Source: Escherichia phage Ec1-ASingh
Length of the DNA: 42,423 bases
Direction: 5' to 3' (one strand)
Sequence record: PQ561394
Both the position numbers and the translations under genes were made by a program. This document shows, piece after piece, positions 3,496 to 42,423 of the stretch; the stretch's first letter is position 1, and each line of letters starts with the position of its first letter. Below the pieces are notes generated by a model. It did no database searches. It saw only the letters and a list, made by a program, of their open reading frames with translations, and was not told where the DNA came from.

Positions 3496-3716
3496 CGAGA
3501 ACACTGTACCAAGAAGATGTGGTGCAGCTCAAAGAGGATGGCCTCTCCATTGAGTGGGAGGCCAACACTCAGGTCGAGCTGTATAAGGATGGCACCGTCT
3601 GCATTTCGCAGGACGGTGAGGAAGTCTGGTTGCCTTGGGCATATGTCCGAGATATTATTTTCGCTCTTGAGGAAGCACACGATGCACATGAAAGACACCG
3701 TAGTAGTAGACCTTGA
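3492..3716 (+). CDS. hypothetical protein
   Basis: 74-aa ORF, GTG start preceded by GGAG; overlaps neighbours on both sides. Confidence 0.4.
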   Translation: MTRTLYQEDVVQLKEDGLSIEWEANTQVELYKDGTVCISQDGEEVWLPWAYVRDIIFALEEAHDAHERHRSSRP

Positions 3717-4209
3717 CGGCACGCTGGCCGATGGCCGTTGGCGTTTACACCTGCTGCCTCCACCGGAGCGTCGGCACCTTGATGAAGCGTGGGCCGAGTT
3801 CAACTTGGCTGGCGCTGACGACCCTGCGTTTCAGGACACGATTGATATTGTGAACGCTCTGGCCCTCACGTATCGCATTATCATCCTGACCGGACGCGGA
3901 GCCGTGGCCCGTGAAGTAACCGAGCAGTGGCTCGACGAAGCTGGTGTGGTTTACGACAAGCTAATCATGAGAGAGATTGGCGACTGCCGTAAAGACACAG
4001 AGATGAAGCTGGCGGCGCTGGAGGACATTGGCATTGAGAACATCGTGTGTGCTTTCGACGACCTGCCGCACATCGTTGACTTCATGCGTGGCCTCGGCAT
4101 CACGGTTTATGAAGTGACCCGGTACGAGGACAATCATGAGTATGTTCATGCCAATGCTAAATACGATGGCGCTGATTCTAAGGTCGATGGAGGTAAGGCG
4201 AATGGGTAA
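3682..4209 (+). CDS. HAD-superfamily phosphatase-like protein
   Basis: Begins MHMKDTVVVDLDGTLADG (DxDGT motif I of HAD hydrolases); GAGGA RBS upstream of ATG 3682. Confidence 0.55.
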   Translation: MHMKDTVVVDLDGTLADGRWRLHLLPPPERRHLDEAWAEFNLAGADDPAFQDTIDIVNALALTYRIIILTGRGAVAREVTEQWLDEAGVVYDKLIMREIGDCRKDTEMKLAALEDIGIENIVCAFDDLPHIVDFMRGLGITVYEVTRYEDNHEYVHANAKYDGADSKVDGGKANG

Positions 4210-4780
4210 GAAAGGTCAGAAGTTTATCTTAGACCCGGCACGCAACTGGGGTACTGGCACGCTGCTGAGCGACATTGCTGAGCAAGGTATCATCCTGACG
4301 TACGACGAACCGTACGATGTGCCGAATGACAGCCGCGATTACTACACCTGCGTGAAGGATGGCAAGACCCACACGCTGGTACTGGAGCCGTTCGAGGTGA
4401 AAGAAGTCGAGACTGCGTTCATCCCGGTTGACCCGTACGACCCGGCCAGTGATGTTGAGGTGGCCGTGGCCAAGAGTGCTGGGCCGGGCGGCATGAAGTT
4501 TGACGGCGGCAAGCCCCGCATGTCACTGCTGTTCGATGGCTGCCCGAATGCACTGGAGGCTGTAGCCAGCGTGCTCACCTTCGGCGCTGAGAAGTATGCA
4601 GCCCACTCGTGGCAGACTGTACCGGAAGGTGAGGAACGCTATAAGTCAGCGCTGCTCCGGCACCTGACGGCGGTGGGCAAGGGTGAGGAACTGGATAGCG
4701 AATCCAACCTGCACCATCTGGCGCACGCTGCGTGCAATGCGCTGTTCATTCTGGAACTCGAATTAAGGAAACGCAAATGA
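4202..4780 (+). CDS. hypothetical protein; C-terminal half resembles phage dATP/dGTP pyrophosphohydrolase N-domain (low confidence)
   Basis: GGAGGT RBS before ATG 4202; C-terminal pattern GGKPRMSLL...LTFGAEKYA...W...ALLRHL...HLAHAACNALFILE recalled as typical of phage nucleotide pyrophosphohydrolase-associated domain. Confidence 0.5.
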   Translation: MGKKGQKFILDPARNWGTGTLLSDIAEQGIILTYDEPYDVPNDSRDYYTCVKDGKTHTLVLEPFEVKEVETAFIPVDPYDPASDVEVAVAKSAGPGGMKFDGGKPRMSLLFDGCPNALEAVASVLTFGAEKYAAHSWQTVPEGEERYKSALLRHLTAVGKGEELDSESNLHHLAHAACNALFILELELRKRK

Positions 4781-8008: not shown

Positions 8009-8428
8009 ATGAAAGTGTCTACTATGGGAAATACATCACACACGACGATGCCACTCGACATTCGCCGTGCTGTGGCCGAAGGCATTCAAGCTGAGCGGCC
8101 ATGGTCAGACCTATCTCCCGATGTGATTGTTGACAGCATGTACGAGGCCACCGCCTCCGGTTGCGTTGACGTTTACATCACTGCCGATGACGGCAGCCTC
8201 ATGGCTGTCGCTCACATCGGCAGGTTATTCGATATTCATGTGGGCGAGATGGTGGTCGTTATGGCCTCATACGTCTGGCCCCAGTACAGAAACCGTGGAG
8301 TGATGCGTGCCATCCTCCGTGTACTCAAAGACGTGGCCCGTTCAGCGGGTGTGCGTTGGTGCGGTTACTCCCATATGGTGCGGCCTTACGTTCAGGAGTA
8401 CCGCTTCATTGATTTGGAGAAACCGTAA
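8009..8428 (+). CDS. GNAT-like N-acetyltransferase (putative)
   Basis: 139 aa; segment VWPQYRNRGVMRAILRVLKDVARSAG resembles GNAT motif A (acetyl-CoA binding); start overlaps conserved ATGAAAGTGTCTA motif so true start may be ATG 8024. Confidence 0.45.
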   Translation: MKVSTMGNTSHTTMPLDIRRAVAEGIQAERPWSDLSPDVIVDSMYEATASGCVDVYITADDGSLMAVAHIGRLFDIHVGEMVVVMASYVWPQYRNRGVMRAILRVLKDVARSAGVRWCGYSHMVRPYVQEYRFIDLEKP

Positions 8429-8688
8429 TGGGTAGCGTAGGCAAAGTATTCAAGGGCATTGGCTCCGTCTTCGGACTGGGTAGCCAAAAGCCGCAGTACA
8501 CTATCAAGACTGACCCGGCGCAGGTCAAGGCAGAAACCATGCAGGCTAACCTTGCAGCCGACCTCGCTGGTGAGAACACCCCAACCATTCAGGCAGGTGG
8601 CCAAGTAAGCTCGGCCTCTGATACGCTGGGTGGTCGCCGCCGTCGCACCGGAACTGGTGTGGCAAGTAACCTCGGCATTGGGAGCTAA
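8428..8688 (+). CDS. hypothetical small Gly-rich protein (possible virion protein)
   Basis: 86 aa; TAATG overlap with upstream gene; position just before portal. Confidence 0.5.
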   Translation: MGSVGKVFKGIGSVFGLGSQKPQYTIKTDPAQVKAETMQANLAADLAGENTPTIQAGGQVSSASDTLGGRRRRTGTGVASNLGIGS

Positions 8689-8690
8689 GC

Positions 8691-10256
8691 ATGACTCAAG
8701 ACGCGCAGAACGTCAGCTATGAGTCTCTGTGGCAGAAGTACCGGGATAGCAACGTTGTCACGAAAGCGCGGGAGTACAGCCGCTACACACTGGCTAAGCT
8801 GGTGAGCGAGTACGACCGCAGTGACGTGGACGACATGAACCGCCAGCAGATTACTCGTGATTACCAGTCTGTCGGCGCTCTGCTCGTCAACAACCTGACC
8901 GCTCGGTTGGGTGAGTTCCTGTTCCCGGCTTCCGCACGATTCGTGAAGCTGAAATTAAACAAGGTGTCTGACCAACAGCGGCAGTCTATGTCGCAAGTGA
9001 ATCAGGCGCTTATCACTATTGAGAAGGCCATCGTAGACAAAGCCAAAGAGAATGGCGGCTACGCTGACCTGCTCCAGTGCATTGCCCAACAAGCTGTGAC
9101 CGGAAACGCCGCGCTGTACCGCGATATGGAAACTGGTTCGTACCGAGTGTACGGATTGGAATCCTTCGTGGTGCAGCGCGACGGTCGTGGCGTTGTGGTG
9201 GATGCTATTATCAAGGAGCGCATCCAGTGGGATTCTCTGCCGAAGGACTTTCAGAATGAACTGAACTCCAAAGGCTTCCGCTGTGGTGGGAACAAACGCG
9301 TGTGGCTGTACACCCGCGTCCTTCGCGTTCAGAAGGACAGTGGCAATTACGGCTACGAAGTAACGCAGCAGATTGGCAACTACCAAGGCTGCGTCTATAC
9401 CCCCGGTAAAGATTACTACCCTGAAAAAGTCTGCCCATGGTTATTCCCAGTGTGGTCTTTGAAGTCTGGCGAGCATTACGGTCGCGGGATTGTCGAAGAC
9501 CACGCTGGGGATTTCGCACGTCTGTCGCTCCTGTCTGAGCATTCTGCTCTGTACATGCAGGAAGCGCTGCGCGTGCTGTGGATGCTCACTGGCTCTGGCG
9601 GCAACGTCGATGACATTGAGAGCGCAGAGACTGGGCAGGTCATTCCACTCCAGAACGGCACCACGTTGTCGGGGCTGGAGGTCGGGGATTACCAGAAAGT
9701 TCAACAGGCCCGTGACGAAATCAACCAGATTGTGCAGCGACTGGCGCAAGCCTTCATGTACACTGGTGAGTTCCGTGACTCCGAACGTACCACCGCCACC
9801 GAAGTGCAGCAGGTAGCAACCAGCGCCGAGCGTGGGCTGGGTGGGCCGTACTCAATGCAGGCTAAGACCCTCCAGATTCCTCTGGCGTATGTCCTGCTCG
9901 CGGAGATTGACGAGTCCACCGTACCAGATATCGTCGGCAACATCCTGTCGCTTCAAGTCGAAGCTGGCTTGGATGCCCTCGGTCGAAGCATTGAAGCTGA
10001 GACGCTTATCAGAGCGCTCTCCGACTCGCAGGCAGCAATGGTTGCTGTCCAGAATATTAATGGCGTTGCTAACACCATCGACCCTCAGAAAGTCCTTGAG
10101 GTTATCTTTGCCTCCAATGGTGTTGCGCTGGACGACTATCGTAAGTCGCCACAAGACTTGGCCCAAGAAGGTCAGGCCATCGACAATGCAGCCGCTGCCG
10201 CCGCTGGCGTACAGCCGGGCGCAGTTGATGTAGCGCCTAACATCGCACAGATTTAA
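8691..10256 (+). CDS. portal (head-tail connector) protein
   Basis: 521 aa; GGGAG RBS; size and position upstream of scaffold/capsid as in T7 gp8 / phiKMV connector. Confidence 0.75.
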   Translation: MTQDAQNVSYESLWQKYRDSNVVTKAREYSRYTLAKLVSEYDRSDVDDMNRQQITRDYQSVGALLVNNLTARLGEFLFPASARFVKLKLNKVSDQQRQSMSQVNQALITIEKAIVDKAKENGGYADLLQCIAQQAVTGNAALYRDMETGSYRVYGLESFVVQRDGRGVVVDAIIKERIQWDSLPKDFQNELNSKGFRCGGNKRVWLYTRVLRVQKDSGNYGYEVTQQIGNYQGCVYTPGKDYYPEKVCPWLFPVWSLKSGEHYGRGIVEDHAGDFARLSLLSEHSALYMQEALRVLWMLTGSGGNVDDIESAETGQVIPLQNGTTLSGLEVGDYQKVQQARDEINQIVQRLAQAFMYTGEFRDSERTTATEVQQVATSAERGLGGPYSMQAKTLQIPLAYVLLAEIDESTVPDIVGNILSLQVEAGLDALGRSIEAETLIRALSDSQAAMVAVQNINGVANTIDPQKVLEVIFASNGVALDDYRKSPQDLAQEGQAIDNAAAAAAGVQPGAVDVAPNIAQI

Positions 10257-37359: not shown

Positions 37360-38625
37360 GTGCTTGACAAGCTGTTGTTAACGGTGATGCGCGAGCGCGG
37401 GAAGTATAACTCCCTGCGACACGCCATCCCGGAAGATACAATGAGCCAGACCACGGGCTATATGCTGCGTGCTTACGGCTCATACTTTGACGCGTTCCCG
37501 GACAGTGACTTCATTGACATTGAGACACTGGGTACGCACGTTCGTTTAAAGACAGGCAGCACGCCTGAACAGATGGCAGCCTTCGATTCATTGTGCGCTC
37601 AGCTCAAAGAGTATCAGCCCACGAAGGAACAGAAGGAAGGCATCCTTGACCAGCTCGTAGAGTTGGACACCGCTGGCCGTGCGAACCTGCTGATGCAGAG
37701 GTACGACAATGGTGAAGAACTGGATATTATCTATGAGCTTGGCCGTCTGGCTGAGGGCGCACGCCGCAGTCGGGGCCAATCATCAGTTACCGATTACGTC
37801 GATGACGATGTGGTTGACATTATTAATCGCACTGATGATGACCAAGGTTTTAAGTTCGGTCTCATGTGTCTGCAAGATAGCGTACGCGTACTGCTTCCCG
37901 GCGACTCCGTTGCAATCGCTGCCCGACCTGACAGTGGGAAGACCAGCTTCATCGCGTTTAACCTTACGCGAATGGCGGCGACAGCGGCGAAGCTGTATCC
38001 GGGCAGACCAATCCTGTGGTTCAACAACGAAGGGCAGGGCATCAACATCATCCCGCGCATCTATCAGGCGGCGCTCAACTGTACGCTCCCGGAACTGAAA
38101 GAGCTGGGCGAGGACAGGAGCAAGCTGCACGCTGCGTACGCCAAAGCACTGGGTGCGCCAGCCAACGTGATTCGTGTGAAGGATATGCACGGCGCGACGC
38201 TGGCGAAAGCTGAGCAGGTTATCGAAGCGATGAACCCGTGCATCGTGGTGTGGGATATGCTTGCCAACTTCAAGCTGTCTGTGTCTGACCCGTCGAGCAA
38301 CAAGGCGAGTCAGGTTGAGCAGCTATGGCAGGAGGTACGTGAGCTGGCAGTGCGACACAACTTCGTGTCACTGGCTACGGTTCAGGTATCAGCCGATGGT
38401 GCCGACGATATGTTCCCGGCGCTTGACGCATTGAAGGATTCCAAGACTGGTATCCAAGGGGCGACTGATGTTATCGTGATGCTCGGCAGCGTGGATGACC
38501 CATCGCTGGCGGCGCGGCGCGGTGTCAGTACGCCGAAGAACAAACGCCAGATTGCTGGGCGTCCAAGCAACGTGCGGTCACAGGTACACTTCTTTGCTGA
38601 CCGCTGCCAATATGAGGATATGTAA
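37360..38625 (+). CDS. replicative DNA helicase (DnaB / T7 gp4 helicase-like)
   Basis: 421 aa; Walker A-like AARPDSGKTSF; GTG start after AGGAGAG. Confidence 0.75.
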   Translation: MLDKLLLTVMRERGKYNSLRHAIPEDTMSQTTGYMLRAYGSYFDAFPDSDFIDIETLGTHVRLKTGSTPEQMAAFDSLCAQLKEYQPTKEQKEGILDQLVELDTAGRANLLMQRYDNGEELDIIYELGRLAEGARRSRGQSSVTDYVDDDVVDIINRTDDDQGFKFGLMCLQDSVRVLLPGDSVAIAARPDSGKTSFIAFNLTRMAATAAKLYPGRPILWFNNEGQGINIIPRIYQAALNCTLPELKELGEDRSKLHAAYAKALGAPANVIRVKDMHGATLAKAEQVIEAMNPCIVVWDMLANFKLSVSDPSSNKASQVEQLWQEVRELAVRHNFVSLATVQVSADGADDMFPALDALKDSKTGIQGATDVIVMLGSVDDPSLAARRGVSTPKNKRQIAGRPSNVRSQVHFFADRCQYEDM

Positions 38626-38966
38626 TGAGCAGACTGAAAGTAGGCGACCGCGTAGTAAACGTAGATAAGGGCAGTTTGCATTACGGTGCGACTGGCACCA
38701 TCGTGGATGTGAGCGACCGCTACATCAGCATCAGCCGTGATGATGGTGCGCGGGGTTCCGGTGTCGGCGGCTCATGGACTGCGCGGCCCAAGTCTTGGCA
38801 GCTCGCAGAGGTAGCTGAGCCAGTACAACCTGTCGAGGACTGGAGCTATGCAGAAGCTGAACGACTGTATCAGGCAGCGTGTGATGCCATGTCGGTATAC
38901 AATCAGTACGTCGAGCGCAAGCCTACGACCAACTACCTTCCCGGTTCCACGCCGAGTAAGTGGTGA
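38625..38966 (+). CDS. hypothetical protein
   Basis: 113 aa; ATGA overlap with helicase stop. Confidence 0.55.
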   Translation: MSRLKVGDRVVNVDKGSLHYGATGTIVDVSDRYISISRDDGARGSGVGGSWTARPKSWQLAEVAEPVQPVEDWSYAEAERLYQAACDAMSVYNQYVERKPTTNYLPGSTPSKW

Positions 38967-39130
38967 AGGGGCGCAGCTATCGCCGTTGCTCTTGCGGCGG
39001 CAGCCTGCTGACTGAGCAGGTAAAGGGCAAGGCCACTGGCAAAGTGCTGGTGATTTATGAATGTGAAAAGTGTGGAGTAAAGCAGTATGGAAGAACGCAC
39101 GTATCGAGCGGCACCCTTAAACCAACGTGA
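38963..39130 (+). CDS. possible small zinc-ribbon protein
   Basis: 55-aa GTG-initiated ORF with CSCGG ... CEKCG (two Cys pairs); overlaps the 39087 ORF in another frame. Confidence 0.3.
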   Translation: MKGRSYRRCSCGGSLLTEQVKGKATGKVLVIYECEKCGVKQYGRTHVSSGTLKPT

Positions 39131-39278
39131 GCAGGCTACCATCCGGGCGCAGTACCGGAAGGGTGATGCGTTCCGTGGTGCTGAGGCGCTGGCTGAGCGA
39201 TTCAATGTGCCGCCTGCTGATGTGGTGGCAGTAGTGAACTTCACTTATCGTAAGGGGAAACAGAAGCATGACAAGTAA
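39087..39278 (+). CDS. small HTH (sigma-70 region-4-like) DNA-binding protein
   Basis: 63 aa; GGAG RBS; LNQREQATIRAQYRKGDAFRGAEALAERFNVPPADVVAVV resembles region-4/LuxR-type HTH. Confidence 0.45.
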   Translation: MEERTYRAAPLNQREQATIRAQYRKGDAFRGAEALAERFNVPPADVVAVVNFTYRKGKQKHDK

Positions 39279-39951
39279 TGCCGAAGTCAAGCGCGTGTGG
39301 GCAGAAGATATCTGCCGTCTGCTGCAATCCGAAGAACTGAACTTCGTGGTTGCCGGGGGAGGGGCAAGGGATACCGCGCTGGGTGTTGAGCCGAAGGACT
39401 ATGACATTGTGGTCTTCGGTTGGGGTAGCGACATAAGCCGTGTGGTTGGCCGACTGGACTGGCTGGACTCCAGACTGGAGGACTATGCCAAGCAGCACAA
39501 CCTGCCGTACGAGTTCATGCCAAGCTACCACGACGCGAGCGAAGGCGGCGACTTCGGTTCCCGTCTGTATGGTGTGTTCAAGTTAGGCCCGGTCGATATC
39601 ATCGTGAGCAAGTGTGGCTGCTGGTCACAGGTGCTGGGTGAGTTCGACTTCAACCTGAACCAGTTCTACTTCCCGTCCAGTATCCCGCGATACTCCGGGC
39701 AGTACAGCCGAGACCCCGGCGAGTTCATGGCTTACCCGTATGAGCCGAAGCTGACCGCCGACGATGTGCAGTGGTATCCGGCGCTGGCCAGTCTGGTTGG
39801 AAGCTACGACGACCTGCTGACGCTCCGTGTCTGCCGACCGGATGCCAGCCTGAGTCGCATGGCCTACATGCTGGAGAAGCATGAGAAGCTGCTGCCGTCT
39901 ATTCAGGAGTACGTGAACAGTAAGCCTGACCACTTAGGTGGCCAAGCATAG
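39268..39951 (+). CDS. Pol-beta superfamily nucleotidyltransferase, CCA-adding/poly(A)-polymerase head-domain-like
   Basis: VVAGGGARDTALGVEPKDYDIVVFG matches the GGxVRD...DxD head-domain signature; EFDFNLNQ resembles the RRDLTINA motif but lacks the Arg pair; 227 aa, head-only. Confidence 0.6.
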   Translation: MTSNAEVKRVWAEDICRLLQSEELNFVVAGGGARDTALGVEPKDYDIVVFGWGSDISRVVGRLDWLDSRLEDYAKQHNLPYEFMPSYHDASEGGDFGSRLYGVFKLGPVDIIVSKCGCWSQVLGEFDFNLNQFYFPSSIPRYSGQYSRDPGEFMAYPYEPKLTADDVQWYPALASLVGSYDDLLTLRVCRPDASLSRMAYMLEKHEKLLPSIQEYVNSKPDHLGGQA

Positions 39952-39961
39952 CGGAGGACTG

Positions 39962-42423
39962 ATGGCAATTCGAGCACAGGTGATTGACGTTGAGACCGAG
40001 AACCACGAGTGGTATGGGGAGCTGGCATCGCCGCGCTGCCCGGATAACTACGTGGTGATGCAGGGCCAGCGTGACTGTGTGCTGACCAAGGATGGCTGGG
40101 TGTTCTACGAGCGCGAGGAATACCGGTACAGTTCGAGGGAGGATTGGTTGCAGAACAAGAGCCTGCACCTGCATCCCGACACGAACATTCTGGTAGCCCA
40201 CAACGCGCCGTATGAATTGAGTTGGTGGTTCGAGCATTACGGTGACGAGTTCATCGCCTTCCTCAAACGAGGTGGCCGTGTATTCTGTACGGCGTATGCT
40301 GAGTATCTGCTGACGCACCAACAATCCCAGTACCCATCCTTGAACGAGACAGCACCGAAGTATGGTGGTACTCACAAGGTGGATGCAGTCAAGGCAATGT
40401 GGGAGTCGGGATACCTGACCAGCCAGATTGACCCTGAGCTGCTGAGCGAATATCTGTCCGGGCCGTCCGGCGATATAGAGAACACGACCAAGCTGTTCGT
40501 TGGTCAGTGGGCTGAGCTGACGAAGCAGGGCATGTTGCCAATGGCACTGACCCGGTTCGAAGGTATGCTCATGTGGGCGTACATGATGCACGCTGGTCTG
40601 CACGTTGACCGCGAGGTTGCCGAGCGCAACCGCCGTGAGTTGCAGGATGCAATCAGTGGGCTGACTGATACGCTGCTGAGTTACCTGCCAGCCGACATGC
40701 CACAGGAAGCGCGTGACCAGTTCAAGTTCACGTCAGCTTACCACATGAGTGCGTTCGTGTTCGGCGGCGTGATGAAGTACAAGGCGCGAGTCGAGCGCCG
40801 GGATGGGGATGGCAATCTCATTTACGTCAAGGTGGATGCACCACTGTTCAAGCGTGGCAAGGACAAGTGGGTCAAGCATACCAACGAGTGCGAGTGGGAT
40901 GCCGAGACCGGGCTATGGTATGACCCGGTTGAGAAGGTACACCAGACCATCTACACCAGTGGGAAGAACAAGGGTGCGCCCAAGTTCGAGAAGCTGGCAA
41001 CGGATGAAGTGGATACCAAGTGGGGTGAGGTGCTGTTCCGAATGCCGGGCCTCCTGCGTGTGCAGGACAAACGAGCGAAGGAGATTGCAGACAACCTCGA
41101 ATGGGAAGACCCGAAGCGACCGGGTGAATACCTGCGGCGCACGGGTGACTGGGTTGGTAAGCGCAGGCTTGCCGATGGCAGTCCGGTATTCAGTACGGCG
41201 GGTGAGGTGCTGGACATTCTGGCAGCTCGTAAGATTCCCGGCGTGGTGGAGATTGCCGACCGAGCCAAGGCACAGAAAGACCTCGGCACTTACTACCTGA
41301 GCGAGACGTTCGATGAAGAAGGGAACGTGACTGGCCAGTCGGGGATGATGCAGTTCATCCAGCCGGACAGTATCGTACACCACACCATCAACATGACCGC
41401 GACGGAGACGACGCGCCTATCATCGGCGCGACCTAACAGTCAGAACTTGCCACGTAAAGGCACGAGTAAAGTTAAGCAGATGTTCACCTCCCGCTTTGGT
41501 GAGGGTGGCCGCATCGTTGAGGCTGACTACTCGGCACTGGAAGTGGTGGGGCTGGCAGGGTTCAGCAAGGATAAGAACCTGATTCGTGCATTGCTCGACG
41601 GTATCGACATGCACTGTATGCGTCTGTCAGCTCAGCTCAACGAGCCATACGAGGACGTGCTTAAGAAGTGCAAGGATGAATCCCATCCTGACCATGCACG
41701 ATACAGTCAGATGCGTACTGACATTAAGCCGAAGGCGTTCTCATACCAGTATGGTGCAACAGCGCGAGGCATTGCGTACTCGACTGGTTGCTCTGAGGAA
41801 GAAGCTCAAGCGTTCATCGACAACGAGAAGGGTCTGTTCCCGGAAGTTGAAGAATGGTTCGACTCGGTTATCTTCCCAGCCGTAGAGAAAAGTGGACAGA
41901 GCAATGTGTTCAAGGAGCAGGACGAGAACGGAAGATGGCAGGTGTATCGCCGTGGTCACTTCCGGTCGCCGGGTGGAACTTGTTATTCATTCCGTCAGTA
42001 CGAGAAATGGAACAAGGCGGCGCGTGCTCACCTGATGGAATACAAACCAACTCAGATGCGTAACTATCCGATTCAGGGTGAGACCGCATTTTGGGTACAG
42101 GGAATCGGTGGCCTGCTGTTCCGCTGGCTGCTATCGAACGACTTCTTTGGTGGGCGTGTGGTTCCCATCAACCAAGTGCATGACGCATTCTATTTCGACA
42201 TTGCGCCTGACTGCCCTCACGAGTTCTTCGTTGGACTCAAGGCAATCATGGAGAGCATCCCGGAATACTATAACCACGTATGGCCAGAGTATAACCTGAC
42301 AGTGCCGTTCCCGGCAGAGGTGGAAGCAGGGCCAAGCATGTACGAGAAGCACCACGTAGAGACGACAGCCGATGAAGTGCTGGAGTTTAAGAGACAATTC
42401 CTGACGAGTAAGGGTATCGCAAT
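39962..42423 (+). CDS. DNA polymerase, family A (T7 gp5-like); 3' end runs off the window
   Basis: Open frame from ATG 39962 to window end; motifs DYSALEV (motif A), KAFSYQYGA (motif B), VHDAFYFD (motif C); appears to terminate via ATA-TGA spanning the window end into positions 1-4. Confidence 0.9.
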   Translation, partial: MAIRAQVIDVETENHEWYGELASPRCPDNYVVMQGQRDCVLTKDGWVFYEREEYRYSSREDWLQNKSLHLHPDTNILVAHNAPYELSWWFEHYGDEFIAFLKRGGRVFCTAYAEYLLTHQQSQYPSLNETAPKYGGTHKVDAVKAMWESGYLTSQIDPELLSEYLSGPSGDIENTTKLFVGQWAELTKQGMLPMALTRFEGMLMWAYMMHAGLHVDREVAERNRRELQDAISGLTDTLLSYLPADMPQEARDQFKFTSAYHMSAFVFGGVMKYKARVERRDGDGNLIYVKVDAPLFKRGKDKWVKHTNECEWDAETGLWYDPVEKVHQTIYTSGKNKGAPKFEKLATDEVDTKWGEVLFRMPGLLRVQDKRAKEIADNLEWEDPKRPGEYLRRTGDWVGKRRLADGSPVFSTAGEVLDILAARKIPGVVEIADRAKAQKDLGTYYLSETFDEEGNVTGQSGMMQFIQPDSIVHHTINMTATETTRLSSARPNSQNLPRKGTSKVKQMFTSRFGEGGRIVEADYSALEVVGLAGFSKDKNLIRALLDGIDMHCMRLSAQLNEPYEDVLKKCKDESHPDHARYSQMRTDIKPKAFSYQYGATARGIAYSTGCSEEEAQAFIDNEKGLFPEVEEWFDSVIFPAVEKSGQSNVFKEQDENGRWQVYRRGHFRSPGGTCYSFRQYEKWNKAARAHLMEYKPTQMRNYPIQGETAFWVQGIGGLLFRWLLSNDFFGGRVVPINQVHDAFYFDIAPDCPHEFFVGLKAIMESIPEYYNHVWPEYNLTVPFPAEVEAGPSMYEKHHVETTADEVLEFKRQFLTSKGIA

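Follow-up and report, generated by a model that had tools for sequence, protein, structure and literature searches.

We analysed a stretch of 42,423 nt from Escherichia phage Ec1-ASingh, in the following referred to as the window. On its plus strand an open reading frame (ORF) at 39268..39951 encodes a protein of 227 aa, a predicted minimal class II-type nucleotidyltransferase (NTase) belonging to the phage protein family PHROG 1614. Residue numbers refer to this protein throughout. The ORF was read from the sequence, opens with an ATG and was present exactly as claimed in an earlier sequence-only reading of the window. A Shine-Dalgarno-like AAGGGG, putatively functional, lies 10 nt ahead of the start codon (39252..39257, +), and the end of a 63-aa ORF, stop codon included, shares 11 nt with the start of the NTase gene. 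Directly downstream a family A DNA polymerase gene begins at 39962 (39962..42423, +; PF00476, E 1.3e-30, annotated as DNA polymerase in relatives), in agreement with the earlier placement of the NTase just upstream of the polymerase. The polymerase ORF runs off the end of the window because the window is circularly permuted. Judging by comparison with phage J8-65, its stop codon should overlap the ATG of the next gene at window position 1, which encodes a 299-aa protein of PHROG 862, a family without assigned function there.

The window is 100% identical to Enterobacter phage BHUENT7 across the tested stretch and 121 bases shorter than the BHUENT7 record. Identity to Bonnellvirus phages (J8-65, LF82-23, the Danish “sur” phages, ROV85, Kc261) ranges from 79 to 99%. 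Among eight Bonnellvirus genomes the median ratio of non-synonymous to synonymous substitution rates (dN/dS) of the NTase gene is 0.157 (27 pairs with dS > 0.05), which indicates purifying selection on a constrained protein-coding gene.

Catalytic motifs and predicted structure

The three motifs named in the sequence-only reading, GGGARD (residues 30-35), DYD (44-46) and EFDFNLNQ (125-132), were all found in the protein. Motif A, G30-G-G-A-R-D35 ... K43-D44-Y-D46 (39355..39405, +), comprises the glycine turn and the two metal-binding aspartates. It is supported by conservation and aligns to the GGxVRD...DxD of poly(A) polymerase I (PAP I) and CCA-adding enzymes, so that the DxD carboxylates D44 and D46, whose absence would have spoken against the assignment, are in place. 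Translated in six frames, the window contains the pattern GG..RD...G..D.D a single time. D110 (codon 39595..39597, +) is probably the third catalytic carboxylate: it is conserved, lies in a V-D-I-I-V stretch on a predicted strand (109-114) and is at most one residue away from the strand that bears the Glu in E. coli Cca when aligned with hhalign.

Motif B is degenerate. E125-F-D-F-N-L-N-Q132 (39640..39663, +) is conserved in the family as the counterpart of RRDxxxNA and retains its Asp and Asn, while both Arg are replaced. Using hhalign it is paired column by column with RRDLTINA of E. coli Cca, which confirms the earlier description of EFDFNLNQ as a degenerate RRDLTINA lacking the Arg pair; in the family profile it is also aligned to RRDFTINS of PAP I. 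A remnant of motif D is located on the C-terminal helix, A193-S-L-S-R197 ... Y200 ... K204 (39844..39879, +), as seen from alignment, conservation and the AlphaFold2 (AF2) model, in which the helix spans residues 195-218. R197 corresponds to the templating Arg of EDxxR, being aligned with E-D-P-L-R in E. coli Cca and with EDPVR in PAP I; the ED pair has been lost. Between motif B and the motif D helix the Bonnellvirus clade carries an insertion of ~35 residues (~143-186) with lower predicted local distance difference test (pLDDT) values. The inter-strand loop at residues 86-98 (window ~39523..39561) harbors the sole segment with pLDDT < 50 (residues 88-94). Its sequence, S-Y-H-D-A-x-E-G-G-D-F-G-S-R, is strongly conserved within the Bonnellvirus clade, and by analogy it brings to mind the flexible loop that matters for the function of CCA-adding enzymes.

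In structure comparisons the fold is a Pol-beta-like head that is nearest to class II enzymes and not to cGAS/DncV-like CD-NTases. The stand-alone CCA head-domain protein NP_344798.1 of Streptococcus pneumoniae (PDB 2la3), MenT1 and ANT(2'')-Ia are weaker structural matches than the full class II enzymes, and for none of the three was a match to the NTase found at the sequence level. The earlier description of the protein as head-domain-only is right in that it is far shorter than a full CCA enzyme, but it overlooks the C-terminal helix, which matches the neck motif D and keeps R197. As far as its sequence tells, the NTase represents a catalytic core of class II origin, made up of the head and one neck helix.

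A known phage family and its relatives

The family as such is already known. The NTase matches PHROG 1614 “nucleotidyltransferase” over its full length (residues 2-224, E 3.5e-43, 149 bits), and in RefSeq the J8-65, Lidtsur and LIMEzero orthologues bear the same label. Evseev et al. 2020 (PMC7693777) devote a section to the family as a putative tRNA/CCA nucleotidyltransferase, with a family tree rooted on LIMEzero, and report the gene in 37 of 46 Pectobacterium Autographiviridae, but in only 60 of more than 500 others. The NTase thus represents no novelty, since the family has a PHROG entry, is annotated in RefSeq within the same genus and has been discussed in the literature (PMC7693777). J8-65 gp17 (85% identical to the NTase), LIMEzero ORF22, LKD16 ORF16, gh-1 NP_813759 and PP99 gp21 share the same motifs in an architecture of 145-254 aa. 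The Bonnellvirus NTase differs from the rest of the family in the ~35-residue insertion and in that its genome lacks the ligase found beside the gene in other genera. In the BFVD library the small fold appears in many genera of Autographiviridae (LKD16, phiNV3, PP2, Ninurta, phiAS7, Friunavirus, Cd1). Overall the distribution is patchy, restricted to phages and enriched in phages of particular hosts. The literature on Mom hypermodification and on the BASEL collection mentions NTases that are unrelated to the family.

An exhaustive search by profile returned 391 representative clusters at E <= 0.001, nearly all of 150-230 aa. Among 188 family proteins collected, motif A (GGxxRDxxxGxxx(K/R)DxD) is present in 165 and FDxNxNQ in 160. 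Conservation was assessed in an alignment of 150 diverse homologues with 22-85% identity: G30, G31, R34, D44, D46 and R197 are invariant, and D35, P42, D110, F126, D127, N129 and N131 are conserved in at least 90%.

The profile and structure comparisons bear out the earlier assignment to a class II CCA/poly(A)-type core much shorter than the full enzyme. The family profile finds CCA-adding enzymes and E. coli PAP I with E-values of 1e-9 to 3e-9, the alignment with PAP I extending from motif A to motif D. Comparing the family by hhalign with class II (E. coli Cca, PcnB and four canonical modules) gave a probability of 98.8% (E 1.2e-16, score 110, 141 columns); the alignment with E. coli Cca stops ~30 residues past motif D. 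The single-sequence search against the PDB remained sub-threshold (E about 1) with a match at motif A. In common with the full class II enzymes (CCA-adding enzymes and PAP I) the NTase has the Pol-beta-like head and a complete motif A, and it retains Asp and Asn in motif B as well as Arg in motif D; D110 is a probable third carboxylate. It differs from them in being about half their size and in lacking the body and tail or an RNA-binding domain, and motif E was not detected. An informative domain fusion was not found among the matches: one of 1455 aa turned out to consist of four canonical CCA/PAP units in tandem.

A second relative is Gad2 (PF26128), an experimentally verified anti-Gabija protein of ~400 aa with a predicted NTase domain, the mechanism of which was still described as unknown in 2026. 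This raises the question whether the NTase is itself an anti-defence enzyme of the Gad2 type that disarms Gabija or another end-sensing or OLD-family system, an explanation that we consider improbable. Homologues of the NTase carry a precomputed faint Pfam match to PF26128. We built a profile of 10 Gad2 N-domains from the sequences in the supplement of the Gad2 paper. Aligned with the family by hhalign, the Gad2 N-domain reached probabilities of 93-95% (E 3e-7 to 4e-8, score 50-56) over 125 columns from motif A to the S..R helix. At E <= 1e-3 the Gad2 profile matched 71 of 196 targets (the 188 family proteins, the window protein, LKD16 ORF16 and six class II controls) with up to 32.7 bits. Gad2 resembles the NTase family in being phage-borne and in having the same G-to-DxD spacing, an FDFT motif B and the S..R helix. 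Like the NTase it is without the RR and ED pairs, some of its homologues (IMG) measure 214-278 aa, and a patchy phage-only distribution as seen for the NTase is typical of anti-defence genes.

However, against the Gad2 profile the window protein reaches -0.4 bits and its close relatives reach 1-6 bits, and hmmscan did not report Pfam Gad2 for it at E <= 10. The family is much closer to class II (score 110) than to Gad2 (50-56), and class II enzymes are nearly as close to Gad2 as the family is (73-91%, E 3e-5 to 1e-6, score 41-50). Equivalents of R34/D35 and D110 are missing from the verified Gad2 homologue, the tested Gad2 proteins are ~400 aa long with an extra C-terminal domain, and the NTase gene sits in the replication module and not among the early genes. 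With profiles tested in both directions we rejected membership of the window protein in the Gad2 family, the kinship being at the superfamily level only. Gad2 is, on the evidence of these alignments, a distant cousin within the same superfamily, which we regard as a lead and not as an assignment. PADLOC defence models gave no match for the NTase.

Gene order and neighboring genes

The NTase had been described as occupying the slot in which phiKMV-like phages often carry a DNA ligase. These phages do have a ligase nearby, but the comparison is misleading. The phiKMV-like phage LKD16 carries NTase ORF16, which scores 81 bits against the family profile, between the helicase and ligase gp17, and after the ligase come two small ORFs and the DNA polymerase; NTase and ligase are thus separate neighboring genes. 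Phage phi80-18 has ligase, g26, NTase and DNA polymerase in this order, and in PP99 and ECBP5 the NTase lies upstream of the DNA polymerase with the ligase further downstream. In gh-1 the ligase is encoded in the early region, and the NTase is flanked by the amidase (lysozyme) gene on one side and on the other by an HNH endonuclease gene situated ahead of the primase/helicase. In 3MF5 it is located between amidase (lysozyme) and primase/helicase, in KP-C01 directly after the DNA polymerase and in Vibrio phage OWB one gene after it. These varied gene orders mark the NTase as a mobile accessory within the replication module. The gene that separates DNA polymerase and NTase in OWB (gp13, 8411..8989) weakly resembles Nmad5, a “nucleotide modification associated domain”, with 24.6 bits where the cutoff is 27.

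Neither in the annotations nor in family scans of the large ORFs did we find a DNA ligase in the window genome or in Bonnellvirus. The earlier statement that no KxDG signature is visible anywhere is literally incorrect, as eight such tetrapeptides occur by chance in long ORFs of the window, all in non-ligase proteins; a recognisable ligase is nevertheless missing from genome and genus. The lack of a ligase, together with a position upstream of the DNA polymerase where phiKMV-like phages carry a ligase nearby, would fit an NTase that functionally replaces the ligase. NTase and ligase co-occur, however, as separate genes in LKD16, phi80-18, PP99, ECBP5 and gh-1, and the protein has a Pol-beta-like fold and no match to a ligase or adenylation domain family. 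Co-occurrence and fold essentially refute the replacement. A catalytically dead structural remnant is at odds with the conserved catalytic residues and with purifying selection, and we regard both possibilities as almost certainly wrong. Presumably Bonnellvirus relies on the host ligase. Relatives in Gajwadongvirus, Phikmvvirus, Pokrovskaiavirus and Ghunavirus do carry a DNA ligase, unlike Bonnellvirus. At ~4202..4780 (+) the window encodes a dATP/dGTP diphosphohydrolase N-terminal domain (PF18909, E 5.5e-33), in the place taken by a dNMP kinase and the DNA ligase in related Gajwadongvirus phages.

Gene order also bears on a role at DNA. The NTase could act on DNA ends or nicks within the replication-repair module in the manner of a terminal transferase, maybe with dNTPs, and could serve in end protection, in processing before ligation or in the evasion of DNA-end sensors. 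The gene is always part of the replisome cluster, flanks the DNA polymerase in 6 of the 9 genera or groups examined, adjoins the ligase in LKD16 and is two genes away from it in phi80-18. Furthermore, the RR pair of class II enzymes reportedly reads the ribose 2'-OH (Li et al., 2002), and its loss could relax the discrimination against dNTPs. On the other hand, all close structural and sequence relatives act on RNA, the NTase is acidic, and its position is variable, lying between amidase (lysozyme) and primase/helicase in T7-like phages. A nearby 3'-phosphatase gene of the HAD type, described below, has no specific link to the NTase. We therefore judge both the action on DNA and the uses proposed for it to be improbable.

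This 3'-phosphatase is encoded at 3682..4209 (+), ~6 kb downstream of the NTase, and is annotated as “polynucleotide kinase” in relatives. The product comprises only a PNKP-type HAD 3'-phosphatase (PF25109, 55 bits, DLDGTL motif) without a kinase module, and its gene adjoins an Mre11-like “DNA repair exonuclease”. It is found in 1250 phage records compared to 191 for the NTase, mostly in phages without the NTase. A 3'-end healing pathway formed by the NTase and this “polynucleotide kinase” was rejected on account of the phosphatase-only domain content and the missing specific link.

Immediately upstream of the NTase two small ORFs had been predicted, and both are real and conserved in the genus. 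The first (38963..39130, +) encodes a basic protein of 55 aa with the CxC...CxxC pattern of a zinc ribbon. All four Cys are kept in 7 of 8 relatives, and the ORF is cleanly deleted in LF82-23; a weak match to RNHCP reaches 19.5 bits against a cutoff of 24. The second (39087..39278, +; PHROG 31596) encodes a basic protein of 63 aa (isoelectric point (pI) 10) that is conserved in Bonnellvirus and has a counterpart in LIMEzero, as noted in the J8-65 annotation. Its AF2 model shows three short helices, compatible with the helix-turn-helix proposed for it, which is however not proven at a pLDDT of 68. The two ORFs overlap by 44 nt in different frames, both being conserved open frames across the genus; public records annotate the one, the other or both. 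Upstream of the first ORF and after the helicase, a gene at 38625..38966 (+) encodes 113 aa with a sub-threshold Xrn1 SH3-like N-terminus (20 bits against a cutoff of 26.2) and a C-terminus matching PHROG 19629, for which no function is assigned there.

We considered whether a conserved small nucleic-acid-binding partner replaces the missing tRNA-binding domains. This was rejected, as the upstream ORFs are non-homologous between genera and absent in others. BLASTP detected no similarity between the 63-aa ORF and the genes upstream of the NTase in PP99, ECBP5, OWB and gh-1, and in PP99, ECBP5 and JSF38 a 90-aa gene that is not homologous to the 63-aa ORF overlaps at the NTase. Apart from the LIMEzero counterpart, none of the NTase-flanking genes compared from other genera shows similarity to the two small ORFs of the window.

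Possible substrates and role during infection

The NTase is very probably an active class II-derived nucleotidyltransferase. In the mechanism we propose, with which the conserved residues agree, D44, D46 and D110 would hold two metal ions, while R34, R197 and the two residues kept in the degenerate motif B, Asp and Asn, would hold the incoming nucleotide. A nucleic-acid end would then receive a nucleoside monophosphate on its 3'-OH, independently of a template; the nearest relatives all work at RNA 3' ends. The residues for CCA specificity and for checking the ribose are missing, and the nucleotide specificity is therefore probably non-canonical and different from that of a true CCA enzyme.

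The roles suggested in the sequence-only reading, tRNA 3'-end repair, RNA tailing and nucleotidylation of a host target, are all candidates. As for the substrate, the target may be the 3' acceptor end of host tRNA, so that tRNAs would be kept chargeable in infection when their tails are trimmed or cut. The explanation that we tentatively favour as a whole is a stand-alone, catalytically competent but truncated class II NTase acting on host tRNA 3' ends. Maintenance or repair of these ends is the single most likely role, although taken by itself it is still a doubtful one. The reasons for preferring it are the ancestry of the protein, its patchy, host-linked occurrence and the proof that immune systems target tRNA tails, as with Cas12a3 (PMC12851939), toxSAS and MenT. 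MenT toxins extend tRNA ends as a poison, which is the opposite logic to the repair proposed for the NTase.

Several observations weigh against a tRNA 3'-end role. With the single sequence, Pfam PolyA_pol (PF01743) reaches 14.8 bits against a cutoff of 23 and covers motif A only, NCBIfam pcnB (TIGR01942) 18.5 bits against 305.65 and NCBIfam cca 13 bits against 469. Among the short homologues scanned against Pfam one (P0155) exceeds the PF01743 cutoff with 27 bits. The profile search proposed earlier as a check thus placed the protein in no unrelated family and established the class II link through the family profile, but the PF01743 cutoff was not reached by the single sequence. Motif B has lost the RR pair that senses the ribose, and motif D the ED half of its base template. 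Body and tail domains are absent, and no match to PolyA_pol_RNAbd (PF12627) was found in the NTase, so that there is nothing obvious in the protein to bind tRNA. Compared to a bona fide CCA-adding enzyme (EC 2.7.7.72), which has about 370-450 aa, the RR pair, EDxxR as the amino-acid template for CTP/ATP, and a body plus tail to bind the tRNA elbow, the NTase falls short in each of these respects.

In addition the NTase is acidic with a pI of 4.7 (family median 4.8, 98% of the family acidic), which leaves the active-site cleft, oligomerisation or a partner as the means of binding RNA. For comparison, the head and neck of E. coli Cca have a pI of 5.3 and its tRNA-binding half 8.9, and PcnB segments range from 9.3 to 10.1, PAP I being basic over its whole length. 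The similarity to the Cca head and neck mildly favours an origin from a CCA core. The constant location among replication genes, in some genera beside the ligase, suits a DNA-end role equally well. We found neither tRNA genes nor Rfam matches in the phage, and a maturation of phage tRNAs by the NTase is thereby ruled out. Finally, we found no biochemical or genetic tests of the family in the literature.

Instead of tRNA, the substrate could be other RNA. As a poly(A) polymerase-like tailing enzyme the NTase might mark host or phage transcripts for 3' exonucleolytic decay or stabilise them. PcnB has a basic RNA-binding C-terminal region, whereas the NTase is acidic and scores below the cutoff of this subfamily. 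We rate RNA tailing as improbable, on a par with the action on DNA ends.

The tRNA 3'-end role and the kinship with Gad2 meet in a broader reading. The ~200-aa phage NTases may be dedicated counter-defence enzymes that rebuild or cap 3' ends and form one lineage with Gad2, derived from class II enzymes. They could act on tRNA tails that Cas12a3-like or CdiA-like nucleases have cut, or on the DNA ends that Gabija-like systems sense. We consider this unlikely, though less so than a Gad2-type enzyme in the strict sense. The family keeps the class II catalytic residues yet has lost the residues and domains for CCA specificity, and its distant relative Gad2 is a proven anti-Gabija factor. If the broader reading is true, the NTase family and Gad2 would be two branches of one anti-defence lineage.

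The gene is no discovery in itself. Among known immune systems there are now some that cut, extend or pyrophosphorylate the 3' tails of tRNAs. A functional study would put right the widespread over-annotation of these genes as “tRNA nucleotidyltransferase” or “poly A polymerase”, and the biochemistry of the small protein combined with plaque assays could reveal new counter-defence chemistry, or ordinary RNA tailing.

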